Below are positions 4,567 to 64,000 of a stretch of DNA of 64,000 nucleotides, one piece after another (position 1 is the stretch's first letter; every line of letters starts with the position of its first letter). The position numbers and the translations under genes were made by a program. The DNA comes from Alphaproteobacteria bacterium. Its GTDB lineage: Bacteria; Pseudomonadota; Alphaproteobacteria; ATCC43930; CGMCC-115725. The stretch spans positions 822 through 64,821 of the forward strand of contig JBFWVT010000021.1 of the NCBI GenBank assembly GCA_050246595.1, given 5' to 3'. The notes below the pieces were generated by a model. That model was not told the DNA's origin and did no database searches. It saw only the letters and a program-made list of their open reading frames with translations.

Positions 4567-5786
4567 CTGCGACGCCCCGTGGTTGGAGAGGACGCGGCGG
4601 CGGGCGGTATCACCGGTCCCGCGCCAGCCGCCGTCGCCGGTGGCGCGGCCGGAGCCTGTCCGGCCGCCGGAGCCGGTTGAAGCAGCTCGGGAAGCGGCAA
4701 AAACGGGAGCACGCCGGTCTCGCCCTGAGCCGATTTGTCGATGATGACCTTTTTGCTGTTTCTCAGGATCTCTTCCATCGTTTCGAGATAGAGACGTTGC
4801 AGCGTCACATCCTCCGCCTGCTTGTAAGCGTTATAGACCGACAGAAAGCGATCGGCGTCGCCTTGGGCGCGCGCGACGATTTCGGCCCGGTGGGCTTCAC
4901 CCCCCTGTCTGATCTGAGCGGCCTCGCCGCGCGCCCGCGGCAGGATATCGTTGCGGTAGGCTTCGGCCTCGTTGCGCAGCCGCTCGCGATCGGCGAGCGC
5001 ACGCTGCACATCGCGAAAGGCGTCGATAACCGGAGCCGGCGGATCGACCTTGGCCATCTGCACCTGGGTGATCTGAATACCGGCGCCGTAGGCGTCGAGG
5101 ATATGCTGCAGCAGCGCCTGTGTCTGCGATTCGATCTTGCCGCGACCCTCGGCGAGCGCCGATGCGATCGGGGTCTCCCCGACGACTTCGCGCATCGCGC
5201 TTTCGGCCGCCGACTTGACGGTCGCTTCCGGGTTGCGGATGTTGAACAGGAACGACTGCGCGTCCTTGATCAGCCAGAAGACCGAAAAGTTGATGTCGAC
5301 GATGTTTTCATCGCCGGTCAGCATCAGCGCTTCCTCGGGAAGCTGCCGGGTTGTCCCGCCGCGCGCCTCGCCCGTGCGATACCCGATTTCGACCCGGTTG
5401 ATGTGCGTCACGCTCGGCGTCAGCACCGTCTCGATCGGGGCCGGCAAATGGTAGTTCAGACCCGGTTGCGTCGTGCGGTTGTATTCACCGAAACGCAGAA
5501 CAATGCCCTGCTGGTCGGGCAGAACCCGATAGAAACCGCTCGCGAGCCACAGCGCGAGAATAACGGCAGCGACGAGTCCGATCCCGGCCGCGCTGCCGAA
5601 CCCGCCGGGCAGAATACGGCGGAACCGATCCTGGCCGCGGCGCAGAATGTCCTCGAGGTTAGGCGGTTGCGGTCCGCGCGGTCCGCCGGAGCCTGGACCG
5701 CCCCGGCCGCTGCCCCACGGGCTGCCGCCTCCACCACCGCGAGGTCCGGCGCCCCAGGGACCGCCGCCCTCACTTTTCCAAATCAT
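4563..5786 (-). CDS. hflK: HflK, SPFH/band-7 modulator of FtsH
   Basis: The start was moved to the internal ATG at 5786 (MIWKSEGGGPWGAGPRGGGGGSPWG...), which gives the Gly-rich N-terminus typical of HflK. SPFH domain present. The ORF-track start at 5855 adds 23 unlikely residues. Confidence 0.88.
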   Translation of the reverse strand: MIWKSEGGGPWGAGPRGGGGGSPWGSGRGGPGSGGPRGPQPPNLEDILRRGQDRFRRILPGGFGSAAGIGLVAAVILALWLASGFYRVLPDQQGIVLRFGEYNRTTQPGLNYHLPAPIETVLTPSVTHINRVEIGYRTGEARGGTTRQLPEEALMLTGDENIVDINFSVFWLIKDAQSFLFNIRNPEATVKSAAESAMREVVGETPIASALAEGRGKIESQTQALLQHILDAYGAGIQITQVQMAKVDPPAPVIDAFRDVQRALADRERLRNEAEAYRNDILPRARGEAAQIRQGGEAHRAEIVARAQGDADRFLSVYNAYKQAEDVTLQRLYLETMEEILRNSKKVIIDKSAQGETGVLPFLPLPELLQPAPAAGQAPAAPPATAAGAGPVIPPAAASSPTTGRRR

Positions 5787-39230: not shown

Positions 39231-39291
39231 TGGACCAATGCCCCCACCCTGCCCTCCCCCGCAAGCGGGGGAGGGTTGAGGAAGGGGTGCG
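39231..39291 (+). repeat. REP element (CCCCCACCCTGCCCTCCCCCGCAAGCGGGGGAGGG family)
   Basis: tggaccaatgcccccaccctgccctcccccgcaagcgggggagggttgagga. It is near-identical to 41335-41395 and in the same orientation. Confidence 0.75.
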
Positions 39292-41334: not shown

Positions 41335-41395
41335 CGACCAATGCCCCCACCCTGCCCTCCCCCGCAAGCGGGGGAGGGTTAGGAACGGGATGCGG
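41335..41395 (+). repeat. REP element, direct copy of 39231-39291
   Basis: cgaccaatgcccccaccctgccctcccccgcaagcgggggagggttaggaacggg. Confidence 0.75.
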
Positions 41396-49169: not shown

Positions 49170-50284
49170 ACCTCGCTCCCGCCAAAGCGGCGTCTTGTCA
49201 GGGCCAGCACCATGCCCATCCCGAACGCCAGCGCCAGCATCGACGATCCGCCATAGGACAGAAACGGCAGCGTCATGCCCTTTGTCGGGATCAGGTGCAG
49301 CGCCGAGGCCATGTTGATGATCGCCTGCACACCGAACTGCATCAGCAATCCGGTCGCGGCGAGCATGACAAACAGATTCTCCTCCTGCACCAGCCGCGAC
49401 AGCCCGCGCAGCACGACAAACGCAAACACCGCCACAATCAGGGCGCAGACGACGACCCCGAACTCCTCGCCGGCGACCGCAAAGACAAAATCGGCGTGCG
49501 CATCCGGCAATACGTCCTTGACCCTGCCCTCCCCCGGACCGCGGCCCCACAGACCGCCATTGGCGAAAGCCTCCATCGCGCGCCTGACCTGATAGCTGTC
49601 GCCAGCCTCCGGGTCGAGAAACCGGTCGATCCGGCTGGTCACATGCGGTAGCAGCAGATAGGCGCCAACCAGCCCCGACACGCCGGCGATGCCGCCCGCC
49701 GCCACCCAGTAGAGACGCAGCCCGGCCATAAAGAATTGCCCGAACCACACCAAAGCAACGACGACGGCCATGCCCAGATCGGGTTGCTTGACCAGCATCG
49801 CGAGGATCACAAGACACAGCGCGATCGAGACGAGATTGCCGGGAAATCCGGGCTTTTCCTTCTGTTTCGCGAACAGCCAGGCGGCGAGCACGGCAAAGCT
49901 CGGCTTGACGAATTCCGAGGGCTGCAACGACAGACCCGGCAGGTTGATCCAGCGCCGCGCGCCCTTGACCTCGGCCCCGATCACAAAGGTCAGCGCCAGC
50001 AGCACAAACGAGACCGCGAAGACGATGAACGCGAACCGCCTGACGCTGCGCGGCGGCAGCAGCGAGACCGCGAACATGATCGCCAGCGCGAACGGGATCA
50101 GCGCCAGCTGACGCTCGGCGAAATACAGCGGGTCGTAGCCGAGCCGCTCGGCGACCGGCGGGCTCGCCGCCATGGTCATCACCGTGCCAAAAAATACCAG
50201 CGCGATCAGCCCGCCCAAGGTCCAGCGATCGACGGTCCACCACCAGCGGGCAATCGGCCGCCGATCGATGCGCGCGAACATCAT
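49166..50284 (-). CDS. ftsW: SEDS-family peptidoglycan glycosyltransferase FtsW
   Basis: 372 aa with about 10 TM segments. C-terminal motif TKGMTLPFLSYGGSSM. Confidence 0.92.
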   Translation of the reverse strand: MMFARIDRRPIARWWWTVDRWTLGGLIALVFFGTVMTMAASPPVAERLGYDPLYFAERQLALIPFALAIMFAVSLLPPRSVRRFAFIVFAVSFVLLALTFVIGAEVKGARRWINLPGLSLQPSEFVKPSFAVLAAWLFAKQKEKPGFPGNLVSIALCLVILAMLVKQPDLGMAVVVALVWFGQFFMAGLRLYWVAAGGIAGVSGLVGAYLLLPHVTSRIDRFLDPEAGDSYQVRRAMEAFANGGLWGRGPGEGRVKDVLPDAHADFVFAVAGEEFGVVVCALIVAVFAFVVLRGLSRLVQEENLFVMLAATGLLMQFGVQAIINMASALHLIPTKGMTLPFLSYGGSSMLALAFGMGMVLALTRRRFGGSEV

Positions 50285-51693
50285 GTCCGCTCCCCGGGCC
50301 GCATCACCCCGGGCAACCTCGCGACAAGCTCCCGGAAGCGATCGCCGCGGACCTCGAAATTCGGGAACTGGTCGTAGGACGCGCAGGCCGGCGACAGCAG
50401 CACGACAGCTCCCGGCACCCCGTCGCGCTGGGCCTCCTCATGCGCCGCGGCGAGCGCGGCGGCGAGGTCGCCGCAGCGTTTGAACGGCACCGCATCGCCG
50501 AGCGTCGCCGCGAACTCCTCGGTCGCGGCCCCGATCAGATAGGCCCGTCGAACGCGCCCGAAATACGAGGTCAGCGGGGTGATGCCGCCGGCCTTTGGCA
50601 GCCCGCCGAGAACCCAGTAGATCGAATCGTAGCAGGCGAGCGCCTTTTCGGCGGCGTCGGCGTTGGTGGCCTTCGAATCGTTGATGTACCGCACTCCGCC
50701 GATCGTGCCGACCAGCTCCTGGCGGTGTGCAAGGCCGGGAAACGACCGGATCGCCGCCACGATCCGATCGGGATCGACGCCGAGGGCGCGCGATGCCGCG
50801 TAGGAAGCCGCCGCGTTCTGCGCGTTGTGCGATCCCGGCAGGCGCTCGGCCAAGGCGAGGTCGAGAACGCGCTCGGGCCGTTCCCCGGTCGCGTCGATCA
50901 GCCATCCGGCTTCGGCATAGACGCCGCCCGGTACGGTCTGAGTCACCGAAATCGGGATGACCCGCGCCCGGCCGGCACGACGCAATTCGTCGCAGATGTC
51001 GCGGCAGATCGGGTCGTCGATGCCGACGATTGCCGCCGCACCGGAGCCTTGGCGCGCGAAGATGCGCTTCTTGGCCGCGACATAGGCGTCCATGTCGCCG
51101 TGCCGATCGAGATGGTCGGGGGTGATGTTGAGCAGCACCGCGACCTCGAAGGCGAGCGTCTCGATCAGATCGAGCTGAAACGAACTCGTCTCAAGGACAT
51201 AAATCCCGTCCGCGCCGAGCGGCGCCAGCGACAGCGCCGGCGTGCCGAGATTGCCGCCGATTTCGACTCGCCTGCCGGTCTCGGCGAGAATGTGTCCGAT
51301 CAGCGCCGTCGTGGTCGATTTGCCGTTGGTGCCGGTGATCCCGACATAGCGCGAATCGGGCTGCGCGCGTCCCAGCAGTTCGATATCGCCGATGATTTCG
51401 ACACCGGAATCGCGGGCGCAACGCACTGCCGGATGCGGCTCGGGATGGGTCAGCGGGATGCCGGGCGACAGCACCAGCGCCGCGATCCCGCGCCAATCCA
51501 CCATTTGCGGATCGACCAGTTGCGGATCGACCAGCGGCATCTCGGCGGCCACCGCGTCGCGCGTCTTGACGCTGTCGTCCCAGGCCAGCACCGCGGCGCC
51601 GCCTTCCAGCAGCGCGCGCAGCGCCGCGCGGCCCGAGCGCGCGAGACCCAGAACCGCCACCCGCTTCCCGGAAAAACCCGTTGCGACAATCAT
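50281..51693 (-). CDS. murD: UDP-N-acetylmuramoylalanine--D-glutamate ligase
   Basis: Start at ATG 51693 (MIVATGFSGKRVAVLGLARSGRAA). GITGTNGKSTTTALIGHIL motif. The stop overlaps the ftsW ATG (ATGA). The ORF-track start at 52515 is an extension across mraY. Confidence 0.92.
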   Translation of the reverse strand: MIVATGFSGKRVAVLGLARSGRAALRALLEGGAAVLAWDDSVKTRDAVAAEMPLVDPQLVDPQMVDWRGIAALVLSPGIPLTHPEPHPAVRCARDSGVEIIGDIELLGRAQPDSRYVGITGTNGKSTTTALIGHILAETGRRVEIGGNLGTPALSLAPLGADGIYVLETSSFQLDLIETLAFEVAVLLNITPDHLDRHGDMDAYVAAKKRIFARQGSGAAAIVGIDDPICRDICDELRRAGRARVIPISVTQTVPGGVYAEAGWLIDATGERPERVLDLALAERLPGSHNAQNAAASYAASRALGVDPDRIVAAIRSFPGLAHRQELVGTIGGVRYINDSKATNADAAEKALACYDSIYWVLGGLPKAGGITPLTSYFGRVRRAYLIGAATEEFAATLGDAVPFKRCGDLAAALAAAHEEAQRDGVPGAVVLLSPACASYDQFPNFEVRGDRFRELVARLPGVMRPGERT

Positions 51694-51698
51694 CGGTC

Positions 51699-52787
51699 TC
51701 ACCGCAGCTTCAGGGTCGACAATCCGGCGATGGCCAGGATGATCGCGATGATCCAGAAGCGGATCACGATCTTCGGCTCCTCCCAGCCCAGCTGCTCGAA
51801 ATGATGATGCAGCGGCGCCATGCGGAAAACGCGCCGCCCGGTCGATTTGAAGCTGACGACCTGCACGATCACCGACACCGCTTCGAGCACGAACAAGCCG
51901 CCGATGATGACGAGCACCAGCTCGTGCTTTGTGATGATGCTGATCGCGCCGAGCGCCGCGCCGATCGACAGCGACCCGGTATCGCCCATAAAGACGCTGG
52001 CGGGCGGCGCGTTGAACCACAAAAACCCGAGACTGGCCCCGACCAGCGCGCCGCAGAACACCATCAGCTCGTCGGCGCGGGCGATATGGTGCAGTTGCAG
52101 ATAATTCGCGTACACCGCATTGCCGACCATATAGGCGATGACCGCAAAGGCGGCGGCGGCAATCATCGCCGGCCCGATCGCCAGCCCGTCCAGCCCGTCG
52201 GTCAGGTTGACGGCGTTCGATGCGCCGGTGATCACCAGTACACCGAATGGTATGAAGAACCAGCCCAGATTGATTAGCATATCCTTCAGAAACGGCACGG
52301 CCAGCGTGTTGGCCAGCGACTCGCGCGTGACAAAGGCCAGAGCGATGCAGGCCACGGTCGACAGCAGGATTTGCAACAGCAATTTGACGCGGCCCGGCAT
52401 GCCGTGATGCGAGCGCCGGGTCAATTTCCGGAAATCGTCGAAAAACCCGATCAAACCGAACCCGACCGTGACGCCGAGCACGATCCAGACATACGGGTTT
52501 GTGATGTCGGCCCACAGGATCGTCGAGACGGTCAGTGCGCTCAAGATCAGGAAGCCGCCCATTGTCGGCGTCCCTTTTTTGCGGATCAGATGGCTTTGCG
52601 GCCCGTCGGTGCGAATCGGCTGCCCCTCGCGCTGCACCGAGCGCAGCCAGGCGATCAGGCTCGGCCCGAAAATGAAGCTGATCAACAGTGAAGTGACGAC
52701 CGCACCGCCCGAGCGGAACGTGATATAGCGAAAGACATTGAAGGCGCTGAAATATTCGGAAAGCGGGTAAAGCAGCAGATAAAGCAT
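51699..52787 (-). CDS. mraY: Phospho-N-acetylmuramoyl-pentapeptide transferase
   Basis: 362 aa polytopic membrane protein. Motifs [18 protein letters not shown] and MGDTGSL. Confidence 0.95.
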
Positions 52788-52904
52788 ACGATCATGTTTC
52801 TGAAGGCGGCGGCGGGCTTGCGGCGGCTTTCAAAGCTTCGGGCACGGCAGGCGTCGAGTCCAGCCATAATGCTGTCGAGGCGACCCGACAACCGCCGCGA
52901 ACAC

Positions 52905-54404
52905 TCATTGTCTCTCCGCCATCGCGAGCGCTTCGCGCGCCACTGCCGCGTCGTCGAACGGCAACACCGTGCGCCCGACAATCTGCCCGGTCTCGTGCCC
53001 CTTCCCGGCGATCACCAGAACGTCGCCGCGAGCGAGACCGGCGATGGCCGCACCGATCGCCGCGCGACGGTCGCCGATCTCGACCGCGCCGGGCGCCGCC
53101 TCCAGGATCGCGCGGCGGATCGCCGCCGGGTCCTCGCTGCGGGGATTGTCATCGGTGACATAAACGAGATCGGCGAGATCGGTCGCGACGCGGCCCATCA
53201 ACGGCCGCTTGCCGCGATCGCGGTCGCCGCCGGCCCCGAAGACGACCGTGAGACGCCGCCCGGTATGCGGGCGCAGCGCGCTCAGCACCGTCGCCAGCGC
53301 ATCCGGCGTATGGGCGTAATCGACAAAGACCGGAGCGCCGGTCCCGGTCTCGTCCCCGGTCTCGCCGACAAACTGCATGCGGCCGGGCACGCCGCTCAGA
53401 TGCGGCAGCACCGCAACCGCATCCTGCGGCGCCGCGCCGGTCGCGATTGCGAGACCGAGCGCCGCCAGCACGTTCGACGCCTGAAACCCGCCGACCAGCG
53501 GCAACGAGATGTCGCTGCGCGCCCCGAACACCTCAACAGCCAGGCGCTGGCCTGACGGCAGCGGTACCCGCTCGCCGATGCGCAGTTCGCTGCCCGGCTC
53601 GCGGCCAAAGCGGATGACATCAAGACCGCGCCCGCGGCACAGCGCGGCAAGGGCGCCGGATTCGGAACTGTCCGCGTTGAGCACCGCAGTTCCGCCCGGC
53701 GTCAGCAACTCGGCGAACAGCCGCCATTTCGCCGCGCGGTACGAGTCCATGTCGCCGTGATAGTCGAGATGGTCGCGCGTCAGATTGGTAAAGGCCGCCG
53801 CCGCGGGGGCGAGGCCATCGAGCCGGAACTGCGCGAGACCGTGGCTGGAGGCCTCAAGCGCGACATGCTCGATACCGGAAGCGGCCAATTCCGCCAGATC
53901 GCGATGCAGCGCGACCGGGTCCGGCGTCGTCAGCGCGCCGGGGCGCCGCCCCTCCTGGGTCACAAGACCGAGCGTGCCGAGGCTCGCCGCCTTGTGTCCG
54001 AGCGCGGTCCAGATCTCGCGCGTGAAATGCGCCACCGAGGTTTTCCCGTTTGTGCCGGTGACGGCGACGACGGTCCGAGGCTGCCGCCGATAAAATCGCG
54101 CGGCAAGCAAGGCCAGACTTCGCGGCGGGTTCGGGTCGATGGCAACAGCCACCCGACCGCGCGTCTCGGGATCGAGCGCCAGCGCGCCCGGATCGTCGGT
54201 CAGGATCGCGACCGCGCCACGAGCGACCGCCTCGCCCGCGAAGGCGCGGCCGTCACTTTTCGTACCGCGCAGCGCGGCAAACAGAAAACCGGGTTCGACC
54301 CGACGCGAATCGGCGGTGATCCCGGCGATCTCGGGATTGCCGGAAAGGGCCTCCACAAGGTGCCCCGGAACCCCGGCGGCAGCGGTCAGCTCAATAAGAT
54401 TCAA
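52905..54404 (-). CDS. murE: UDP-N-acetylmuramoyl-L-alanyl-D-glutamate--2,6-diaminopimelate ligase
   Basis: 499 aa. AVTGTNGKTSVAHF motif and the meso-DAP specificity motif DNPR (YVTDDNPRSEDP). It is followed by a 117-nt gap and then mraY, with no murF. Confidence 0.9.
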   Translation of the reverse strand: MNLIELTAAAGVPGHLVEALSGNPEIAGITADSRRVEPGFLFAALRGTKSDGRAFAGEAVARGAVAILTDDPGALALDPETRGRVAVAIDPNPPRSLALLAARFYRRQPRTVVAVTGTNGKTSVAHFTREIWTALGHKAASLGTLGLVTQEGRRPGALTTPDPVALHRDLAELAASGIEHVALEASSHGLAQFRLDGLAPAAAAFTNLTRDHLDYHGDMDSYRAAKWRLFAELLTPGGTAVLNADSSESGALAALCRGRGLDVIRFGREPGSELRIGERVPLPSGQRLAVEVFGARSDISLPLVGGFQASNVLAALGLAIATGAAPQDAVAVLPHLSGVPGRMQFVGETGDETGTGAPVFVDYAHTPDALATVLSALRPHTGRRLTVVFGAGGDRDRGKRPLMGRVATDLADLVYVTDDNPRSEDPAAIRRAILEAAPGAVEIGDRRAAIGAAIAGLARGDVLVIAGKGHETGQIVGRTVLPFDDAAVAREALAMAERQ

Positions 54405-56172
54405 CCCGCTTTCCCTGCAAGCTCTCGACCGTCAACGCGCGCACCACTGCCGGTGATGCCTCGTCGACCGGCTGCACGCCGAGAATCGGTCCGATGCGCT
54501 GGATGATGCGGCCGGTCGCCGGGGCCGCGGTCCACCCGGCGGTCGCATAGCCATGGCTCTTCTTTGTGCCGCGCGGTTCATCGACCATGACCAGGATCGC
54601 GTATTTCGGATCGTGCATCGGGAACACCCCGACAAACGAGGACAGCAGCTTTTTCTGCTGATAGCGCCCGCCGGAATTCTTCTCGGCCGTGCCGGTCTTG
54701 CCGCCGACGACATAACCGGGAGCCGCCGCGAACCTGGCCGTGCCGTGCTGCACGACGAGCCGCATCAGCTTGCGCATGCTCTCCGAGGTTTTCTGCGCCA
54801 TCACCCGCTCGCCGGGCGGGATCGCGCCGGCCGGCACCTTGCGCAAGGTCGGTTGGCGCAGAATGCCGCCATTAACTACCGCCGATACCGCGGTCACCAT
54901 GTGCAGCGGCGTCACCGAGATGCCGTGCCCGTAGGCGATCGTCATGACGGCGATCTCTTTCCAGTTCTTCACTGGCGGATAACTCGGCTTGCCGACTTCG
55001 TCGAGTTCGATCGACAGCGGCCCTAACAGCCCGAGGCGTCCGAGAAAATTGCGCTGCCGCTCGGCCCCGGCATCGACCGCCATGCGCGCCGAGCCGATAT
55101 TCGACGAGTACATGAAGATTTCCGGGGTGCTGAGCCAGCGGTTCTTGCCGCGATAATCATCGATCGTGAACCGCCCGATGCGGATCGCGCGGCTCGCATC
55201 GTAGCCTCCTCTCATCGACGTGACCCCGGCATCGAGCGCCATCGCCGTGTTAAAGATCTTGAAGACCGATCCCAGCTCGTAGACGCCGAGCGTGATCTTG
55301 TTGAAGGTCCGCTCCCTGGCCTGCTCGGGCGGCAGTTTCGGATCGACGGCGGCGGGGTGGTTCGGATCGAAATCGGGCAGCGACACCATCGCGATGACCT
55401 CGCCGGTGTTGACATCCATGACGATGCCGGCGCCGCCCTTGGCGCTGAACTCGTTGATGATCTTGCTCAGCTCATCGTGCACGATGAATTGCACGCGGGC
55501 ATCGAGAGACAGTTGCAGCGGCCCCGAGCCGCTTTTCATCGTGTCGTCGAGCGCCCGCTCGATACCGGCCAACCCGTTATTGTCGATGCCGCAGAACCCG
55601 ACGACATGCGAGGCCAGATCGCCATACGGGTAGACGCGGCGCTCCTCGTCGAGGAATTGCAGCCCCGGAATGCCGAGGCGGTTGATCTGGTATTGCTGCG
55701 TCGGCGTCATGCGGCGCTTGATCCAGACAAAACTCTTGCCCGATTCCAGCCTGGCGCGGATATCGGCCTCGTTGAGCCGGGGCAAAACCGAGAGAATGGC
55801 CCGGGTCGCCTCGCGAGCGTCGGGGATGTGGCGAGTATCGGCATAGAGCGACGGGGTGCTCAGCGTCGTCGCCAGGAGCTGCCCGTTGCGGTCGAGGATG
55901 TCGGCGCGGGTCGGCGGCGGCGGTGCGGCCGGCCGCACCCGTCCGGCATGCGCTTCCGCCACGCCGTCCAGGAACAGCGGCATCGTCAGCAAGCGCAGCG
56001 CCACGACCAGAAACACGACCGCGAACACACAAGCCACCATCACAAGCCGGGCGCGACAGGTCTCGACGGCAGCGGCATGGCGCTCGTCGGTGACGGCCGG
56101 CGCGCCGGCCGGCAACGGCCGGAAATGCCGCGGCCGGCACGGGTGCTCGTCGATCCGCACAACCGGTTGCAT
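54391..56172 (-). CDS. ftsI: Division-specific class B penicillin-binding protein (PBP3)
   Basis: Start at ATG 56172 (MQPVVRIDEH...), followed by a TM helix. Transpeptidase motifs SVFK (SxxK), SSN and KTGT. It overlaps murE by 14 nt. Confidence 0.92.
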   Translation of the reverse strand: MQPVVRIDEHPCRPRHFRPLPAGAPAVTDERHAAAVETCRARLVMVACVFAVVFLVVALRLLTMPLFLDGVAEAHAGRVRPAAPPPPTRADILDRNGQLLATTLSTPSLYADTRHIPDAREATRAILSVLPRLNEADIRARLESGKSFVWIKRRMTPTQQYQINRLGIPGLQFLDEERRVYPYGDLASHVVGFCGIDNNGLAGIERALDDTMKSGSGPLQLSLDARVQFIVHDELSKIINEFSAKGGAGIVMDVNTGEVIAMVSLPDFDPNHPAAVDPKLPPEQARERTFNKITLGVYELGSVFKIFNTAMALDAGVTSMRGGYDASRAIRIGRFTIDDYRGKNRWLSTPEIFMYSSNIGSARMAVDAGAERQRNFLGRLGLLGPLSIELDEVGKPSYPPVKNWKEIAVMTIAYGHGISVTPLHMVTAVSAVVNGGILRQPTLRKVPAGAIPPGERVMAQKTSESMRKLMRLVVQHGTARFAAAPGYVVGGKTGTAEKNSGGRYQQKKLLSSFVGVFPMHDPKYAILVMVDEPRGTKKSHGYATAGWTAAPATGRIIQRIGPILGVQPVDEASPAVVRALTVESLQGKRVESY

Positions 56173-57023
56173 CAGCGGGTATCGGCGATTTTCGAGATCA
56201 GCGCATCGAGCGAGGCGGGGTTTGCCCTGGCCAGCCGCATCCGCGGGGTCTGCTCGCCGATATCGGCGCCAAGCATGCGGCGCGCTTCGGCCAGAGCGAC
56301 CGCCCCGTCCGTCGGAGAATCGGCGGCCCGCGCCGCGGCACTTCCAGCCTCCGGGCCGGCAGCTTTGGCGGCCCGCGCCGCGGCGATCGGGGCTGCCTTG
56401 GCCGGCCACATAAGCGGGTTCTGGCCGCCGGCGTCAAACCCGAGCAGGTGCAGCGCCTCGGCCAGCGCGACCGCCCGGTCCGCCGAGCCGTCTTCTATGC
56501 GCGCGCCCTCCCCATCGGCGGGCCGTGCGCCGATCCTCCCGCTTTCCCGGCCGCTTGCCTCGGCAACCTGCGCCGCATGAGTCGACCTCCCGGCCACTAT
56601 CGGAATTTCGGCGACCACGGTCCCGCCGGCGCGTGCCGCCGGCGCCGGCGTGGCGGCGAGCGTCGCCGCGAACGGGCCTGCGACGCCCGGTGCGGCGGCC
56701 GGCGGGGTCGCGGCGATCATCGTGTCGGGAATCCCGGCCGGCGGTGCGCGCAGCGCAATCTCCTCGATCCGCCCTTGAAGCTGCTTTGCGGTCATCGGAG
56801 CAAGCTGCAGAAAATTGCGGTTCAGCTCGGCGAGCCGGTCCGGCTGGTTCAGATAGGCCCACTCCGCGGTCAGAACGCGGCTCTCCTGCTGCGCGGCGAC
56901 AGTCTCCCGCTGCACGCGGGCCAGTTCGTCCTCGATCCCCTGGACCGCGTATTTGACATTGAAGGTCGCGAACCCGCTCGCCAAGACGAGCCCGCCCCAG
57001 AACACCGCCCCCAGTCGTGTCAT
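56172..57023 (-). CDS. ftsL: FtsL-like division protein with a long repeat-containing C-terminal extension
   Basis: N-terminal TM helix plus coiled coil (MTRLGAVFWGGLVLASGFATFNVKYAVQGIEDELARVQRE...LNQPDRLAELNRNFL) in the canonical position between rsmH and ftsI. At 283 aa it is about twice the usual size. Confidence 0.65.
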   Translation of the reverse strand: MTRLGAVFWGGLVLASGFATFNVKYAVQGIEDELARVQRETVAAQQESRVLTAEWAYLNQPDRLAELNRNFLQLAPMTAKQLQGRIEEIALRAPPAGIPDTMIAATPPAAAPGVAGPFAATLAATPAPAARAGGTVVAEIPIVAGRSTHAAQVAEASGRESGRIGARPADGEGARIEDGSADRAVALAEALHLLGFDAGGQNPLMWPAKAAPIAAARAAKAAGPEAGSAAARAADSPTDGAVALAEARRMLGADIGEQTPRMRLARANPASLDALISKIADTR

Positions 57024-57044
57024 GCGATCGTCCCCCTGCCGATC

Positions 57045-58109
57045 TCATCTCCCCCCACCGATGCCGCCGTTCCCCCACGGCGGCATCGATGTACGCTCGG
57101 CCGCCCGCAGACGCGCCGAGCGGGCGCGCGGATTGCGCGCGACCTCGTCCGCCTGCGGTCGCACCGCCCGGCGCCCGAGCAGGCGAAAACTTGGCGGTCT
57201 TGCGGGCGCAGATGCGGGCATGTGGCGCGATATCGAAGCCGCCCCGCCGCCGCGCTCGCGCAGAAATGATTTTACGCGAGTGTCCTCAAGCGAGTGAAAC
57301 GAAACCACCGCGAGACGGCCGCCCGGCATCAGCAGCCGCTCGGCGCCGGCCAAGCCGCGGTCCAGCTCGCCCAGTTCGTCATTGACCGCGATGCGCAGCG
57401 CCTGAAACGTGCGGGTCGCCGGATCAAGTCCGGGTTCGCGCGTCGGGACCGCCCGGCGCACGATCTCGGCCAGCTCGCCGGTGCGTCGAATCGGGGCATG
57501 CTGACGCGCCACGACAATCGCCCGCGCGATGCGGCGGGCGAAGCGCTCCTCGCCGAGCGTGCGGATCAGCCGGTCGAGTTCGTCTTCGCCGAGACGCGCG
57601 ACAAGGTCCGCCGCGCTTTCGCCCTCCGCGCTCATGCGCATGTCGAGCGGCCCGTCAAGCCGGAACGAAAAACCGCGCTCGGCGGTATCGAGCTGCAGCG
57701 AGGAGATCCCAAGATCGAGCGCGACGCCGGCGACCGGACCGGGAGAAGCCGCTGCGACGAGCCGCTCCATGTCGCCAAACCGGCCCTCGATCAGTTGCAG
57801 GCGCCCCGCATGTGCGGCCGCGAGCGCAGCGCCGCGACGCAGCGCGGCGGGATCGCGGTCGATCCCGACGACAGAGCATTGCGCCGCCGCGAGCAGCGCC
57901 GCGCTGTAGCCGCCGGCGCCGAACGTGCCGTCGATGTAGACCGCGCCGTCGCGCGGCGCGAGCGTCGCAACCATCGCATCGCGTAGTACCGGGACGTGAC
58001 CCGAGGAAATATGGCCCGAGCCGGTTTCGCCAGCACCCGACCCCTCCGGTCGGGGCGTCTCGCCGTTCTCCGGCTCCGATCGTGCCGCTCTCGCCCTGGC
58101 GCGCGTCAC
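57045..58109 (-). CDS. rsmH: 16S rRNA (cytosine1402-N4)-methyltransferase
   Basis: Motifs HVPVLRDA and VYIDGTFGAGGYS. There is no ATG upstream of these motifs except the implausible one at 58442. GTG 58109 overlaps the mraZ stop (GTGA), giving 354 aa. Confidence 0.85.
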   Translation of the reverse strand: MTRARARAARSEPENGETPRPEGSGAGETGSGHISSGHVPVLRDAMVATLAPRDGAVYIDGTFGAGGYSAALLAAAQCSVVGIDRDPAALRRGAALAAAHAGRLQLIEGRFGDMERLVAAASPGPVAGVALDLGISSLQLDTAERGFSFRLDGPLDMRMSAEGESAADLVARLGEDELDRLIRTLGEERFARRIARAIVVARQHAPIRRTGELAEIVRRAVPTREPGLDPATRTFQALRIAVNDELGELDRGLAGAERLLMPGGRLAVVSFHSLEDTRVKSFLRERGGGAASISRHMPASAPARPPSFRLLGRRAVRPQADEVARNPRARSARLRAAERTSMPPWGNGGIGGGR

Positions 58110-58588
58110 GCCTCGCCTCCGCTCGGGCGCCGAGCCGCGCCGCCGCGCGGCGGCAAGGTCGTTCCCTGCCGGCGCGAGCGTTCGCGAACCGCGGCGCGGT
58201 GCTCCTCGTAGCGCGCCGGGTCCCAGAGCTGGAACATCGCCCCGAGACCGACAAACGCGACATCGCACTCGATCCCGGCATGCTCCTTGAGGCGCTCGGG
58301 CAGGATGACCCGGCCCTCGGGGTCCATCGTCATCGGATGCGAGTCGGCGAAAAGCTGGGTCAGGTTTTCGTATTCGTCGGAGAACTGTTCGAGCGTATCG
58401 ATCCGCTCCTGCATTTCCTCGATGCGGTTGCTGCCGGTACATTCGACGGCCGGGACGCGCAATGAAGGAAATGCAACCACCAGGTTCGGCTGACGATTGG
58501 CAGCGAGGGTGGAGCGGAAGGTCGCCGGCACTGAAACTCGCCCCTTGCGGTCGACCTTATTCACGTAAGTGGAAAGAAACAGTTCCAC
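58106..58588 (-). CDS. mraZ: Transcriptional regulator MraZ
   Basis: Two SpoVT/AbrB-like repeats (VDRKGRVSVPATFR and MDPEGRVILPERL). The proposed GTG start at 58588 (VELFLSTYVNKVD) follows GGGGGAAGC and gives 160 aa. The ORF-track ATG at 58753 would add 55 residues and overlap the predicted promoter. Confidence 0.85.
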   Translation of the reverse strand: MELFLSTYVNKVDRKGRVSVPATFRSTLAANRQPNLVVAFPSLRVPAVECTGSNRIEEMQERIDTLEQFSDEYENLTQLFADSHPMTMDPEGRVILPERLKEHAGIECDVAFVGLGAMFQLWDPARYEEHRAAVRERSRRQGTTLPPRGGAARRPSGGEA

Positions 58589-58678
58589 TTGCTTCCCCCA
58601 ACGCTCCCCCAAAGACGTCCGGCAAGGGGCGGGCCCGGCTACACCATCGGTTCCCCCCAGAACGATGGTGTTCGCCCA

Positions 58679-58724
58679 TGGGTGTATATGGGATAGCACG
58701 GGATCAGATGGGCCGTCAATGGGA
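58679..58724 (-). promoter_or_regulatory. Putative Pmra promoter overlapped by five phased [T/C]GGG repeats (candidate MraZ operator)
   Basis: On the plus strand, TGGG occurs at 58679, 58689, 58709 and 58720 and CGGG at 58699, a 10-11 nt period. The minus strand reads TTGACG (58719-58714)-N17-CTATCC (58696-58691). The site is about 100 nt upstream of the mraZ GTG. Confidence 0.45.
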
Positions 58725-59042
58725 TTCTGGATGAAAGAATCTCTAACAGGCAAAATATTGGAATAATGGGCATTTCTAGCGCATCATGTAGTGGCGGCAG
58801 AGACATAGCGCGTCATCCGATTATTTGTTTTCTTTTTGTTCTTTTCTTGACCGAGTAACACTTGGTAACAGGTTGTCGATGCGGCAGAATTGGGGTCCGC
58901 TGGCTGTTTGCCGGCGCTCTGCCAGCCTCTTCACGCCCCGGGAGAACGCTGTAGGCCCGTGGCGGGCGAGCGCGGCGGCGGGTCCGGCGGGTTCGGGGAA
59001 AACTCAACCTATGGTTTTATCATCATCGCTTCAGGTTAAAAC

Positions 59043-59505
59043 GCCAGACGGTCTGTAAGCCGGGTTCTGTCCCGCCGCGCCTCCATGACAGGGATGGCGC
59101 GACGGGGATGGCCATTCATCTGGGGCGTTCGTCGCCGAACGCCTCGCGCGACCGACCCGAGCGGCGGCGCGGCAGGCCCGCCCGGCGGCACCCCCGCCGT
59201 AAGCTGGTGCCGCCTGCCGCTCCTACTTGGTCTTGCTCCCGGTGGGGTTTGCCCTGCCGCCGCCGTTGCCGGCGGCGCGGTGCGCTCTTACCGCACCATT
59301 TCACCCTTGCCGCCCCATACCGCCCCGTGGGCCGTCCCACCGGACGACGGGGTGCGGCGGTGTGTTTCTGTGGCACTTTCCCTGGGGTCGCCCCCGCCGG
59401 GGATTACCCGGCACCGTGCCTCCGTGGAGCCCGGACTTTCCTCCCTCCGCCGGCTCGGGATCTATCCCGGAGCCGGAAGGAGAGCGGCCATCCGACCGTC
59501 TGGCA
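59043..59505 (-). ncRNA. rnpB: RNase P RNA, bacterial type A
   Basis: The minus strand contains the universal P4 halves GGAGGAAAGUCCGGGCUCC (5') and ACAGAACCCGGCUUAC (3'). It also has GGUGAAAUGGUGCGGUAAGAGCGCACCGCG and terminal P1 pairing CCAGACGGUC/GACCGUCUGG. ORFs 59085..59513 and the first ~200 codons of 59108..61414 are spurious translations of it. Confidence 0.92.
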
Positions 59506-59713
59506 TCGGATAATGTGGGATGTCCCTCTCAAGCTGCAAACCGCCGGGCCGAATCGCGACCGCAGTTCGGCGTCACCCGATTCGGCCTCGGCCGATGTTC
59601 ACCGCCTGCATGGCTCGGCCCCCATCCATGCGGCGATAGCGCGCATCGGGCGCCGTCTTCGATGCTACACTCGACCGCAGCGCCGGGATGGCCCGGACCG
59701 AGGAGGAAAACGG

Positions 59714-61414
59714 ATGGCGTATGACCTGCTGATCAAGAACGGCCTCATTGTCGACGGCTCGGGAATGCCGGCGTTTCGCGGCGATGTCGGCGTGAAGAAC
59801 GGCAAGATTGCCGAAATCGGCAAATTGTCGTCGCCGGCGAGCCGCACGATCGATGCCGATGGAAGCGCCGTCGCGCCCGGCTTTATCGACAATCACTGCC
59901 ATTACGACGCGCAGGTCACCTGGGACCCGCTCTGCACCTTTTCGCCCGAGCACGGCGCGACGAGTGTGATTTTCGGCAATTGCTCGCTGAGCCTCGCGCC
60001 GGTGCGCAAGGGCGGCGAACTCAGACTCGCCGAGTTCCTGTCCTATGTCGAAGCGATCCCGATGGAGGTGCTCAAGACCATCGAGTTCGACTGGGAGACG
60101 GTTCCGGATTACATGGAGCGGCTCGACAACCATCTCGGGATCAATATCGGCAATCTGATCGGCCACACGGCGGTGCGCCATTACGTGATGGGCGACGACT
60201 GCCAGAAGCCCGGCGCCACCGAGGACCAGATCAAACAGATGCGCGACCTCGTGCGCGAGGGCATGGCGGCCGGGGCGCTGGGGTTCTCGGTGTCGCGCGA
60301 GAAGGGACATTTCGACCCGCAGGGTGTGCTGATCCCGGCGCTGTGGGCCGACGAAAACGAAATCTTCCAGCTCTGCGACGTATTGCGCGAGATGGGCACC
60401 GGCACGATCCAGGCCGGCGGCGGCCAGTATGTCGAGCTGAAGGACGGCATGATGCGCCGCCTCGCCGACGCGACCGGCCGCACCGTCGTCTACAACTCGC
60501 TGTCGCAGACGATGCGCCGCCCCGACGAGTGGAAAATCCACATGGCGCGTATCGAGGAGACCGCCTCGCTCGGTATCCGCGCCTACCCGATGTGCAGCCC
60601 GAACCGGGTGACGCAGGATTTCACGATGAAGAACACGCAGGTCTTCCGCGGCCTGCCGACCTGGCACCCGATCCTGTTGAGGTCGGACGACGAAAAGCTG
60701 CGCCTCTACGCCGATCCCGAAATCCGCGCCAAATTGCACGAGGAAGCGATCGTCAACAAACCCGACGCCGCGGTCGGCATCTCGAAGACCTGGTGGAACT
60801 ACATCTGGGTCAACGAGCCGGTTCTCGAAAAAAACAAGTGGATGCAGTTCAAGTCGATCGGCCAGATCGCCGAGGCGCAGAAGAAGGGCGTCATCGACGC
60901 GTTCCTCGATCTCGTCGTCGAGGAAAAGCTCGAAACCCGCTTCCTGCAAGCCGAGAACAATATCGACGACGAGGCGCTGTCAAAAATCCTGACGCACCCG
61001 AACGCGGTGATCGGCCTTGGCGACGGCGGCGCGCACGTCCAGTTCCACGGCGGCTACGGCTATCTGACCAAGCTCCTGGGCGAATGGGTCCGCGAGAAGC
61101 AGATCATGTCCTTGGAGCAGGCGGTGCGCCGGCTGACTTTTGATTCGGCCTCGACCTTCGGCCTTTATGACCGAGGCTTGCTACGCCCCGGTCTGGCGGC
61201 CGATATCGTGATCTTCGATCCCGCCACCGTGAAGTGCGGCAAGGAAGAAGTCGTGCACGACTTCCCGGCCGGCGGCTGGCGCATCAAGGAAACCTCCGAG
61301 GGCGTCTCGCACACGATCGTCAACGGTCAGGTGCTGCTTGAAGACAAGAAGCACACCGGGGCCCTGCCCGGCCGCGTGCTGCGCAACACCCACTGGCACG
61401 CCAACCACGGCTGA
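59714..61414 (+). CDS. N-acyl-D-amino-acid deacylase (D-aminoacylase) family amidohydrolase
   Basis: Start at ATG 59714 with AGGAGG 8 nt upstream (MAYDLLIKNGLIVDGSGMPAFRGDVGVKNGKIAEIG). Metal-binding motif PGFIDNHCHYD, 566 aa. Confidence 0.85.
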   Translation: MAYDLLIKNGLIVDGSGMPAFRGDVGVKNGKIAEIGKLSSPASRTIDADGSAVAPGFIDNHCHYDAQVTWDPLCTFSPEHGATSVIFGNCSLSLAPVRKGGELRLAEFLSYVEAIPMEVLKTIEFDWETVPDYMERLDNHLGINIGNLIGHTAVRHYVMGDDCQKPGATEDQIKQMRDLVREGMAAGALGFSVSREKGHFDPQGVLIPALWADENEIFQLCDVLREMGTGTIQAGGGQYVELKDGMMRRLADATGRTVVYNSLSQTMRRPDEWKIHMARIEETASLGIRAYPMCSPNRVTQDFTMKNTQVFRGLPTWHPILLRSDDEKLRLYADPEIRAKLHEEAIVNKPDAAVGISKTWWNYIWVNEPVLEKNKWMQFKSIGQIAEAQKKGVIDAFLDLVVEEKLETRFLQAENNIDDEALSKILTHPNAVIGLGDGGAHVQFHGGYGYLTKLLGEWVREKQIMSLEQAVRRLTFDSASTFGLYDRGLLRPGLAADIVIFDPATVKCGKEEVVHDFPAGGWRIKETSEGVSHTIVNGQVLLEDKKHTGALPGRVLRNTHWHANHG

Positions 61415-61430
61415 CGGATCGGGGGCGGAG

Positions 61431-61580
61431 GGGCTCGCACCCCCACCCTGCCCTCCCCCGCCAGCGGGGGAGGGTTGTTTATGGTGCGGCGGCCGTTCTG
61501 ACTCGGGACAACACGAGGCACCCGCGCCAAAGCGTCCCCTCCCCCGCTGGCGGGGGAGGGCAGGGTGGGGGTATTCCGGG
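61431..61580. repeat. Inverted pair of REP elements between convergent genes
   Basis: ccccaccctgccctcccccgccagcgggggaggg (about 61441-61474) and its inverted copy cccctcccccgctggcgggggagggcagggtggggg (about 61538-61573). Confidence 0.7.
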
Positions 61581-61595
61581 CAAAGACTCGCGCGA

Positions 61596-62537
61596 TTATT
61601 TCGCCGCTTGCGGCTTTTCGCGGATCGTCTTCGCGATCTCCTTCTGCCGGTCGAACTCGGCGCGGCGGCGCGCGATTTCCTCCGGCGACAGTCGCGCGAT
61701 ATTCGAGAAATCGAGCTTCCACCCAGGGTCTGCGCTCCAGCGCAGCGGCGACTGCACGGTCGTGCGCGGCACCGGCGCCGCCTCAAGCACTCTTAGCGCA
61801 AGCTCCAGCGTAAACGCCTGCGATTCCGGGTCATGCGGCTTGCCGGCCGGGTTGCCGAGCGGGAAGTCGCTGAACAGAAAGCGCGGCACGCCGACATATT
61901 CGACAATGTCCTTGGCGCAGCCCATGACGATGGTCGGGATGCCGTTCTCTTCGAGGTGACGGGCGGCCAGACTCACGGTCTGGTGGCACACCGGTCAAAC
62001 CGCGACAATGACAACCGCGTCTACCCCGTCCTCGCGCACCCGCTTCAACAGTTCCGGGCAATCCCGGTGCAGGGTCGCGCGGTGGCTGCGGTCGGTCGGC
62101 GCTCCGTGAAAGCGCGGCGCGACCTCGCCGATCCGCTCGGTCTCCGACAGCCGCCGCAGGGCCGGCAGAGGAAACCACGTGTTGCTGTCCTCGGCCGTCG
62201 TATGCGTGCGGTCGTACCCGATATGCGAGATGCGCAGATCGTGGTCGCGATCGGTCTCGCCGGAATAGACCCGGTAGAATTTGGCGGCGCCGTTATACGA
62301 CGCACCCGGCCCCTGGTCGCCCTTGTCCGGCTGGTACGGCGCCGCCGTCGTAATCAGCCCGATGCAGCTCTCGGCCAGCGGTTTCTTGAGTGGCGCAAAC
62401 GGCACCTCGGCGTAATGCGCCCAGCGATACGGCGCGCCGTAGCCAAGCGTCTGGTAATACTCGCGTATCCGCGTCATATACGGGATCGGCGCGTCGTGCT
62501 CCGGCGCAAAGCCAAATTCGTCTTTGTCATCACTCAT
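61596..62537 (-). CDS. GrdB/PrdB-family (glycine/sarcosine/betaine or D-proline reductase B-like) protein; candidate selenoprotein with TGA 61995-61997 read as Sec
   Basis: ORFs 61995..62537 and 61596..61991 share one frame, separated only by TGA plus a Pro codon. The joined 313-residue product reads ...VDAVVIVAV-U-PVCHQTVSLAARHLEENGIPTIVMGCAKDIVEYVGVPRFLFSDFPLGNPAG. A SECIS-like hairpin follows the TGA. Confidence 0.6.
61962..61992 (-). promoter_or_regulatory. Candidate bacterial SECIS hairpin
   Basis: The mRNA after UGA reads CCGGUGUGCCA-CCAGAC-CGUGA-GUCUGG-CCGCC. The upper stem is 6 bp (61967-61983) with a 5-nt loop containing GU, which starts 18 nt after UGA. The lower stem is GGUG/CGCC plus G-C, with a bulged U. 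Confidence 0.5.
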
Positions 62538-62751
62538 CGTGTTGACTTTCCTCCTTCACGATCAGATCGATTGCCGCGAGCCAATCGGTCCAGGCGGCGG
62601 GATCGGCGGGCCTGCGGTCGCTCTGGACGAGCTGGATATCCCCCAGAACATCCCCGAGTTCTGCCGTGCCATTTGTACGACGATAATATTCGTCGAGAAA
62701 GACGAACATGGCTTCGAAAGCCTGTTCCGGCGACAACGATCGATCCTTCAT
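62530..62751 (-). CDS. Small acidic protein, immunity/antitoxin-like (uncharacterised)
   Basis: 73 aa: MKDRSLSPEQAFEAMFVFLDEYYRRTNGTAELGDVLGDIQLVQSDRRPADPAAWTDWLAAIDLIVKEESQHDE. Its ATG overlaps the stop of the upstream gene (ATGA), and its stop overlaps the GrdB-like start by 8 nt. Confidence 0.4.
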   Translation of the reverse strand: MKDRSLSPEQAFEAMFVFLDEYYRRTNGTAELGDVLGDIQLVQSDRRPADPAAWTDWLAAIDLIVKEESQHDE

Positions 62752-63035
62752 CTCGGCAGCCTCTCGCGCGCGATAGGATTAATTCCACCATTCACAATTT
62801 TGCCGTTGCGAACGCGTGCCCAAATTTGAGTGCCATCGGCGAGTGTCTCGGCATACCAGTCATTGCCGGCACGGTCGGTCCCGAGGAAGTTTGTCGGTTT
62901 GCTCACCACCTGAAGCAGCCGTTGCCTGTTCGCTTCTGTGTCGTCACGAAAATGGCCCTCCGCATTACGAAAAATATGGTGCGCTCTACCTTCATCAATC
63001 GTAGCCTCGGGCGCTTGGGATGGCAGCAGCCTCAT
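62748..63035 (-). CDS. Small protein resembling a free-standing polymorphic-toxin C-terminal domain (uncharacterised)
   Basis: Start at ATG 63035, overlapping the cupin stop (ATGA), 95 aa: MRLLPSQAPEATIDEGRAHHIFRNAEGHFRDDTEANRQRLL...DGTQIWARVRNGKIVNGGINP. The ORF-track GTG start at 63170 would overlap the cupin gene by 139 nt. Confidence 0.35.
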   Translation of the reverse strand: MRLLPSQAPEATIDEGRAHHIFRNAEGHFRDDTEANRQRLLQVVSKPTNFLGTDRAGNDWYAETLADGTQIWARVRNGKIVNGGINPIARERLPR

Positions 63036-63427
63036 CCCGCCTTGAAGTACGCAACATCCTCCGGCCGCGGCTTCCAGTCCGGGTTGCTTGGCCATTCTTT
63101 TGTGCGGCCGGAAAATTCGCTGCCGTAGCGCACGCGGAACAGCAGCGTTCGCCTGGGTCCGGTATTCCACTCGTGCAATTCGCCCGGCGGGTGCACGACA
63201 AACGATCCCGGCGCGACCTCGACCGTCTCGGTCGGCGTCTTCATCGTGCCGCCGCCCTCAAAGCAGAAATAGATTTCGGTTGCGTGCGGGTGGCAGTGAT
63301 ACGGGCTGACCTGTCCCGGCTCCCAGCACGCCACCGTCACATCGCCCTCGGCGATCCGGCCGAGCACGCGCTCGACATGCTTTTTCGGGTCGAATTTTTC
63401 CTCGGCCTTCAGATTGAAACAGTGCAT
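63032..63427 (-). CDS. Cupin-domain protein
   Basis: 131 aa. Cupin motifs SPYHCHPHATEIYFCFEG and FVVHPPGELHEWNTG. Confidence 0.75.
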   Translation of the reverse strand: MHCFNLKAEEKFDPKKHVERVLGRIAEGDVTVACWEPGQVSPYHCHPHATEIYFCFEGGGTMKTPTETVEVAPGSFVVHPPGELHEWNTGPRRTLLFRVRYGSEFSGRTKEWPSNPDWKPRPEDVAYFKAG

Positions 63428-63459
63428 CGCGTCACCTCGACTTATTCGGAATAAGAACC

Positions 63460-63500
63460 CCCACCCTAACCCTCCCCCGCTTGCGGGAGAGGGAAATGGC
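63460..63500. repeat. REP hairpin
   Basis: cccccaccctaaccctcccccgcttgcgggagaggg, between the acyl-CoA synthetase 3' end and the cupin gene. Confidence 0.6.
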
Positions 63501-63509
63501 GCAATCCAC

Positions 63510-64000
63510 TCACGCGGTGGCGCGCTCGCGCACGCCGAGTTCGGCGATCATCCGCTCGCGCATGACGAATTTCTGCACCTTTCCGGTCACGGTCAGCGGA
63601 AACGCATCGACAAAGCGGATATGCTGCGGAATCTTGTAATGCGCGATCCGGCCCTCGCAGAACGCGCGCAATTCGTCGGCCGTCACGTGCTCGCCGGCGC
63701 GCAAGGTGACCCAGGCGCAGAGTTCCTCGCCGTAGCGCTCGTCGGGCACGCCAAACACCTGCACGTCCCGGATCTTTGGATGGCGATACAGAAACTCCTC
63801 GATCTCGCGCGGGTAGACGTTCTCGCCGCCGCGGATCACCATGTCCTTGAGGCGGCCGACGATGTTGCAATAGCCCTCGTCGTCGATCGTCGCCAGATCG
63901 CCGGTATGCATCCAGCGCGCCCGGTCGATCGCCTCCGCGGTGCGCTCCGGGTCGTCCCAATAGCCGAGCATCACCGAATAGCCGCGCGTGCATAGCTCGC
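63510..64000 (-). CDS. AMP-dependent acyl-CoA synthetase/ligase, C-terminal part (gene continues past window end)
   Basis: ...[59 protein letters not shown]...VTGKVQKF, the typical ANL-superfamily C-terminal domain. Confidence 0.88.

Follow-up and report, generated by a model that had tools for sequence, protein, structure and literature searches.

The selenoprotein family annotated as 'proline reductase PrdB' (pfam07355), whose members carry selenocysteine (Sec) in a UxxC motif, ranked third in abundance among the selenoprotein families of the Sargasso Sea, where 42 genes were counted (PMC1088965, Zhang, Fomenko & Gladyshev 2005), and was again among the most abundant in Global Ocean Sampling, with 235 selenoproteins and 110 Cys homologs (PMC2398784, Zhang & Gladyshev 2008). 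Here we examine a gene of this type on the minus strand of a 64,000-nucleotide (nt) stretch of DNA from an Alphaproteobacteria bacterium (contig JBFWVT010000021.1 of assembly GCA_050246595.1; the whole stretch is hereafter the window). Our comparative sequence analysis indicates that the in-frame UGA at codon 181 of this gene very probably specifies Sec, with the help of a functional selenocysteine insertion sequence (SECIS), in a stand-alone PrdB-like protein. Compared by description rather than through aligned sequences, with common membership of one subfamily inferred from Pfam family, motif and habitat, the environmental 'PrdB' family and the window gene share PF07355, Sec in UxxC, Cys-containing homologs and a SECIS directly after the UGA. 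The environmental family is abundant in oxic samples, and the window gene agrees with it in every respect tested.

The better known relatives belong to amino acid-reducing systems. True PrdB uses Sec151 to attack a substrate that is held on the pyruvoyl group of PrdA, and its U151C variant has no activity (PMC11229817). PrdB of Clostridioides difficile and Clostridium sticklandii (TIGR04483) is homologous to the window protein over window residues 47-257 and has the same UxxC motif (U151 in C. difficile, PMC11229817), and the two likely share the chemistry of a Sec nucleophile resolved by a nearby Cys. The window protein is, however, some 70 residues longer, and at the 240 loci that we compared for its family neither prdA (pyruvoyl subunit) nor prdC nor any further conserved partner lies within 5 kb. 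Cys forms are common in the window family, whereas PrdB U151C is inactive, and the family occurs mostly in Alphaproteobacteria-, Methylomirabilota- and Chloroflexi-labeled lineages rather than in Stickland fermenters. The window protein likewise matches the C-terminal half of GrdB, GrdF and GrdH (TIGR01918/TIGR01917; model positions ~207-420 of ~431), but at 313 residues against ~430 it is without their N-terminal ~200 residues. GrdB has the motif UxxCxxC (PMC13188914), whereas the window protein reads U-P-V-C-H-Q-T and lacks the third Cys, and grdA and grdE neighbors are absent from the same 5-kb surroundings of the 240 loci.

Family assignment and the residue at the in-frame TGA

Two minus-strand open reading frames (ORFs), 61995..62537 (180 aa) and 61596..61991 (131 aa), lie in one frame and are parted only by the TGA and a CCG codon. 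Read-through of the TGA gives 313 codons, translated as ...RVREDGVDAVVIVAV-[TGA]-PVCHQTVSLAARHLEENG..., with ...VIVAV-[TGA]-PVCHQTVSL... in the immediate surroundings. An earlier note on this DNA, which had proposed a single 313-residue protein with a U-P-V-C motif on the strength of these two ORFs, described both coordinates and sequence correctly. In the window, whose G+C content is 65%, this is the sole TGA flanked on either side by coding-type codon bias (G+C at third codon positions at least 0.8); with no second such TGA, the 64 kb yielded no further selenoprotein gene.

For profile searches of the joined protein, Cys was placed at the TGA. The Pfam model GRDB (PF07355) was passed with 31.5 bits against a gathering threshold of 22, residues 38-179 matching model positions 207-346 of 347, so that the match stops two residues short of Sec, at model position 346/347. 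The NCBIfam PrdB model (TIGR04483) scored 94.4 bits, below its cut-off of 300, over residues 47-257 (model 20-224); TIGR01918, a GrdB-type subfamily, scored 49.1 bits, below its cut-off of 65.45, and the GrdH/GrdF/GrdB models were also matched far under their cut-offs. Residue 181 falls at about positions 148-154 of the PrdB model, a placement in model coordinates only and not a residue-level alignment to bona fide PrdB. All-against-all clustering of the ORFs within 5 kb of the 240 loci revealed no conserved partner gene: no cluster was present in more than 19 loci, and the recurrent ones, judged by eye, are large generic families, hence the absence of a PrdA-, PrdC-, GrdA- or GrdE-type companion. 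Since its scores fall well short of the cut-offs for PrdB and GrdB and no PrdA- or GrdA-type neighbor is conserved, the window protein is a distant, stand-alone relative of PrdB and GrdB and an equivalog of neither. The assignment to the GrdB/PrdB family made in the earlier note therefore holds at the level of Pfam GRDB, and does not extend to equivalence with either enzyme.

The best 120 of the thousands of matches in a search of 5.8 billion proteins are 63-81% identical to the window protein, nearly all ~313 aa long and collinear with it end to end; the homologs are thus single proteins and not products of two genes. The TGA column is Cys in all 120, in the motif C-P-V/I-C-H-Q, and Cys again in each of 120 Cys-type loci from metagenomes, with the motif C-P-V-C-H-Q. 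The C-P-V-C that the earlier note gave for proteobacterial homologs is borne out in this way, with Cys at the TGA column in 240 of 240 Cys-type sequences. Moreover, the window protein deviates at none of the 78 columns with a conservation of at least 95% across 297 family members, and it retains all invariant residues after the TGA.

A structural model was available in the form of the AlphaFold prediction of a Cys homolog (P0001, 81% identical to the window protein; predicted TM-score, pTM, 0.83). Here a strand (174-178) is followed by a loop holding residue 181 and then by a helix (184-197) of which Cys184 is the first residue. Redox pairs of the CxxC type usually sit in such a strand-loop-helix arrangement. 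Neither single-sequence nor profile searches against PDB sequences returned anything real, and Foldseek comparison of the P0001 model with the PDB gave no match at E <0.01, only generic alpha/beta folds with TM-scores of at most 0.3. Separately, the NCBIfam model for the UGSC family (seleno)protein has a weak local match, below its cut-off, at residues 150-205 (E 0.018) and centered on the Sec site, which hints that UGSC selenoproteins share an active-site module with the window protein.

Recurrence of the TGA and the hairpin downstream of it

We scanned one genome per species with the degenerate pattern TGA-CCN-RTN-TGY-CAY-CAR-N57-GGN-TGY-GC. The in-frame TGA recurs in the genomes of other species, in at least 119 stretches that together represent five or more phylum-level groups, and the 119 stretches listed, of a true total that is at least as large, form the TGA set used below. 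By a hand tally of record titles, 65 of these are alphaproteobacterial, 20 belong to Methylomirabilota/Rokubacteria, 11 to Chloroflexi, 12 to Gamma- and Betaproteobacteria and 6 to deltaproteobacterial lineages, and 5 are unclassified. In Alphaproteobacteria, the genomes of early isolates had formate dehydrogenase as their sole selenoprotein (PMC1794560, PMC8124441), and the statement in the earlier note that other selenoproteins are rare in this class agrees with those genomes, but not with the environmental genomes that supply the alphaproteobacterial share of our tally. In nearly all listed loci the TGA is in frame with the conserved upstream half (...ED..D.A.L.A.-TGA-PVCHQTVSL...) and is followed by a conserved downstream half of ~100-139 codons; some loci are cut off by a contig end. 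The closest relative among the matches listed (L098), at 90.9% amino-acid identity, has both the TGA and an identical 48 nt after it. Two side observations concern this set. Four metagenome-assembled genomes (MAGs) each carry two distinct TGA-type paralogs (L009/L011, L020/L065, L028/L094 and L050/L119). In a further locus, on a complete-chromosome MAG (L037; OZ244041.1, TGA segment at 4531-4578), the upstream part is out of frame (...KRFINTLAPQVR-TGA-PVCHQ), for which a frameshift, faulty assembly or true pseudogene status could account.

Selection on the two halves of the gene is alike. Against seven TGA orthologs, the ratio of nonsynonymous to synonymous substitution rates (dN/dS) is 0.14-0.22 before the TGA (175 codons) and 0.09-0.21 after it (132 codons). 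Purifying selection past the TGA is as strong as before it, and the downstream part must therefore be translated.

The hairpin that the earlier note had drawn behind the TGA, a CCAGAC/GUCUGG stem with a CGUGA loop, is present (Table 1) and has the geometry of a bacterial SECIS (bSECIS) in every parameter of the published model (PMC13188914). It begins 11 nt downstream of the UGA, with 17 nt from the A of the UGA to the loop (model range 16-37 nt). The loop has 5 nt (3-9 nt) and the upper stem 6 bp (4-16 bp); the model calls for a G at loop position 1 or 2, after which G or U is usual, and G-U occupies loop positions 2-3. The minimal hairpin of 21 nt has a predicted free energy of -8.5 kcal/mol (z -2.8), and the 43 nt from the UGA reach -17.9 kcal/mol (z -2.1) in a minimum-free-energy fold that takes in a GGUG/CGCC lower stem, against a model threshold of -7.5 kcal/mol or below. 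Unlike the bSECIS consensus of the bSECISearch model (PMC13188914), with which it shares all of these criteria, the window element has no conserved lower helix. No Rfam family matches the hairpin at any threshold.

A further comparison is between TGA forms and Cys forms of the same gene. As a control we used the 120 Cys-type metagenome loci, retrieved with the same pattern but with TGY for TGA, and we number positions from the T of the TGA as nt 1. Among TGA forms, nt 16-30 (the 15 nt CAGACCGUGAGUCUG; codons CAG ACC GTG AGT CTG) are nearly invariant, synonymous sites included. Third-position entropy at nt 18/21/24/27/30 is 0.07/0.25/0.36/0.21/0.00 bits, while flanking third positions show 0.9-1.8 bits. 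The corresponding values for Cys forms are 0.57/1.41/1.48/1.53/1.40 bits, and their amino acids vary there as well. The exact 15-nt core occurs in 103 of 119 TGA forms and in none of the 120 Cys forms, and all five core pairs can form in 110 of the former and in 4 of the latter. Because the codons for H-Q-T-V-S-L also spell out the hairpin, TGA forms, and they alone, have these residues and the synonymous sites frozen.

Covariation points the same way. The closing pair of the helix, 15-31, connects the His codon, at its synonymous site, with the first base of the codon that follows Leu; in 111 distinct TGA sequences it is C-G in 69, U-A in 30, U-G in 3 and unpaired in 9. The two positions are strongly associated among TGA forms, with an odds ratio of 144 (p 2e-18), and not among Cys forms (odds ratio 1.1, p 1.0). 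Across these 111 orthologs the upper helix is 97.3% paired, and the whole tested structure is 88.3% paired in register, compared with 25-37% when partner columns are slid by 1-3 positions. The lower stem (nt 6-9 with 33-36) fares less well, at 74.8% paired, with its two variable pairs unpaired in 65 and 43 of the 111 orthologs. It is thus specific to the window sequence: the lower stem that the earlier note had included exists in the window's own minimum-free-energy fold and is not conserved, whereas the hairpin proper is kept, with covariation, in TGA orthologs and not in Cys orthologs.

Decoding of the TGA and rival explanations

In the mechanism that we favor, SelB carrying Sec-tRNA(Sec) would bind the hairpin when the ribosome arrives at UGA181, Sec would be inserted and termination avoided, and the product would be one 313-residue selenoprotein. 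The dependence on SelB is our inference. Sec181 would then lie in the strand-helix loop, with the helix beginning at Cys184, and the U-P-V-C pair would most likely alternate between a selenol/thiol and a selenenylsulfide state, Sec making the nucleophilic attack. Cys forms are abundant in the family and no PrdA-type companion is conserved within 5 kb; this selenol/thiol-selenenylsulfide cycle is the probable chemistry, to which we assign no substrate.

Several observations tell against decoding as Sec. Searches for selA, selB, selD and tRNA-Sec (tblastn with E. coli SelA/B/D, and ARAGORN) found none in the 64-kb window, the 7 kb beyond it and 239 related loci, the remaining contigs lying outside this search; in Alphaproteobacteria, selC has been described as nested within selB (PMC8124441). 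Five gammaproteobacterial-type TGA loci with the motif ...LLVPT-U-P[VI]CHQSVSL... (L016:1863-1910, L023:4676-4723, L035:598-645, L063:1580-1627 and L111:123-170) do not have the common hairpin, though most of them can fold CGGUCA-GUU-UGGCCG about 5 nt further downstream and seem to use this hairpin in its place, and four other TGA loci have AGC, and with it an A.C mismatch in the stem. All TGA orthologs found come from MAGs, with complete chromosomes (OZ244951.1, OZ245815.1 and OZ243976.1) among them. Finally, the shuffle controls and Fisher tests behind the statistics given above are uncorrected for shared ancestry.

The best surviving alternative, which we nevertheless consider very unlikely, is that the UGA is read as an ordinary amino acid such as Trp or Cys by a near-cognate or suppressor tRNA, the hairpin serving only to boost read-through with no part for SelB or selenium. 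The missing Sec genes in the window and the loci searched would suit this explanation, and the inserted residue cannot be told from sequence alone. The hairpin, however, has the specific geometry of a bSECIS, including the G-U of the apical loop and the 17-nt spacing, and the recoding falls on the redox Cys column in a catalogued UxxC selenoprotein family (PMC1088965, PMC2398784). TGA also serves as a normal stop for the 73-aa ORF directly upstream. In addition, a constraint to Asn before the active site, described below, is lost in TGA forms only, which suggests a chemically different residue at position 181.

That the gene is a pseudogene, with a recent TGC/TGT to TGA nonsense mutation in a Cys-type gene and a decaying downstream ORF, is in our view extremely unlikely. 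The change from TGC to TGA needs a single base, the nearest Cys forms are 81% identical, and gene callers can yield two products: automatic calling on the Logan contig (L240:950-1891, equivalent to window 61596-62537) splits the gene into 180 and 131 aa. In the record of NCBI assembly GCA_050249755.1, a single gene of 313 codons is called across the TGA (L243:11883-12824; JBFWPY010000017.1, 28565-29506), with no Pfam hit on record, and this call could be either a Sec annotation or a pseudogene flag; an exact look-up of the 313-aa product, with X at the TGA, gave no entry. Decay is nonetheless at odds with the same TGA in at least 119 other genome stretches, with dN/dS as low as 0.09-0.21 after the TGA, with the absence of deviations at the 78 near-invariant columns, and with hairpin synonymous sites frozen in TGA forms only.

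As for the idea of two separate genes, or of a false stop from a sequencing or assembly error, there is next to no chance that it is correct: a GTG two codons past the TGA could start a second ORF, and the Logan gene calls do list two genes, but two codons between the ORFs are too short for a ribosome-binding site, no homolog is split, both parts make up one predicted domain, and recurrence in at least 119 other stretches rules out random error. The window sequence is also identical to the Logan assembly of run SRR27751817 (over window 61544-63486) and to contig JBFWPY010000017.1 of GCA_050249755.1 (over window 49714-64000, at least 14.3 kb; by the coordinates, the contig of the window is a second and longer one), though these assemblies may rest on shared reads. 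The proposal that the gene is a Sec-for-Cys variant, and neither a pseudogene nor two genes, has accordingly withstood all three of the tests applied to it, namely homolog architecture, the residue aligned with the TGA and the conservation of the hairpin.

Local layout and Cys/Sec exchange in the family

The features of the locus are collected in Table 1. On the same strand, the putative selenoprotein gene is preceded by a gene for a cupin and by two small ORFs that match no family, and an amidohydrolase gene is convergent with it. The 73-aa ORF immediately upstream, possibly co-transcribed with the selenoprotein gene, has no Pfam match and falls in no recurrent neighbor cluster.

Table 1. Features of the PrdB-like locus, in window coordinates
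Feature	Position	Strand	Remarks
PrdB-like selenoprotein coding sequence, complete (predicted)	61596..62537	-	313 codons plus TAA stop; ATG at 62535-62537; 942 bases; from translation, Pfam/NCBIfam matches and 313-aa homologs
UGA codon 181, very probably read as Sec, U of U-P-V-C	61995..61997	-	Aligns with the invariant Cys of 240 Cys-type homologs
Cys184 codon, presumed resolving cysteine of UxxC	61986..61988	-	Invariant in all homologs; resolving role putative
SECIS core hairpin (predicted)	61967..61983	-	Stem CCAGAC (61978-61983) / GUCUGG (61967-61972); apical loop CGUGA (61973-61977)
Extended helix, predicted for the window sequence only	61957..61997	-	Covers the GGUG/CGCC lower stem and the UGA itself; -17.9 kcal/mol, z -2.1
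Shine-Dalgarno-like purine-rich stretch GAAGGAGGAAAG	62546..62557	-	Upstream of the ATG; read from the sequence
73-aa ORF upstream of the gene	62530..62751	-	Own TGA stop overlaps the gene start region (ATGA)
GC-rich palindrome CCCTCCCCCGCTGGCGGGGGAGGG	61537..61560	.	36 nt beyond the stop codon; may be a terminator or part of a repeat family

The GC-rich palindrome listed last is one of five copies of CCCTCCCCCGCNNGCGGGGGAGGG in the window (39252-39275, 41355-41378, 61451-61474, 61537-61560 and 63470-63493), where none is expected by chance. Two copies separate the selenoprotein gene from the convergent amidohydrolase gene, and another is found upstream of the cupin gene; the copy at 61450-61475 fits a terminator pattern. 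The element looks like a REP-like (repetitive extragenic palindromic) intergenic repeat or a bidirectional terminator. Further along, a bacterial class A RNase P RNA (59040-59503 on the minus strand; 256.6 bits) has the amidohydrolase gene on one side and, on the other, a cell-division cluster with its mraZ/rsmH end.

Comparison of the two forms of the protein across the 297 family members brings out a second difference. The residue before the Sec/Cys column is Asn in 200 of 201 Cys forms and in 43 of 96 TGA forms, counts that ignore phylogeny. TGA forms without Asn at position 180 have V, S, T, A or I there, and the window protein has Val (GTT, 61998-62000). This suggests that a thiol at the active residue requires a preceding Asn and that a selenol does not.

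Exchange between Cys and Sec appears to have been frequent, with at least 16 state changes on a rough neighbor-joining tree of the family. Of the 120 Cys forms, 17 are at most two substitutions from the 15-nt SECIS core, and 4 form the hairpin already. With so many Cys forms within two substitutions of the core, switching between Cys and Sec is mutationally cheap in this family. The coding sequence for Q-T-V-S-L is close to a ready-made SECIS; the element is embedded in the coding sequence and nearly pre-formed by it.

It is possible, and we put this forward tentatively and with more doubt than confidence, that these stand-alone PrdB-like proteins are not subunits of a Stickland-type reductase and act autonomously, as selenol/thiol oxidoreductases in aerobic bacteria of soil and water. 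If so, the family would combine unusually frequent Cys/Sec switching, with its Q-T-V-S-L coding sequence only 1-2 substitutions from a working SECIS, with an Asn that is needed before the active Cys only to activate the thiol and is dispensable with selenium. Gene callers still split the gene, and protein databases under-count the Sec forms as a result; all full-length database matches that we obtained are Cys forms.

In summary, the window gene is a further member of a selenoprotein family known from environmental bacteria since 2005 and is nothing new in kind. The embedded SECIS and the relaxed Asn in Sec forms are modest but testable leads on how Cys and Sec are exchanged.

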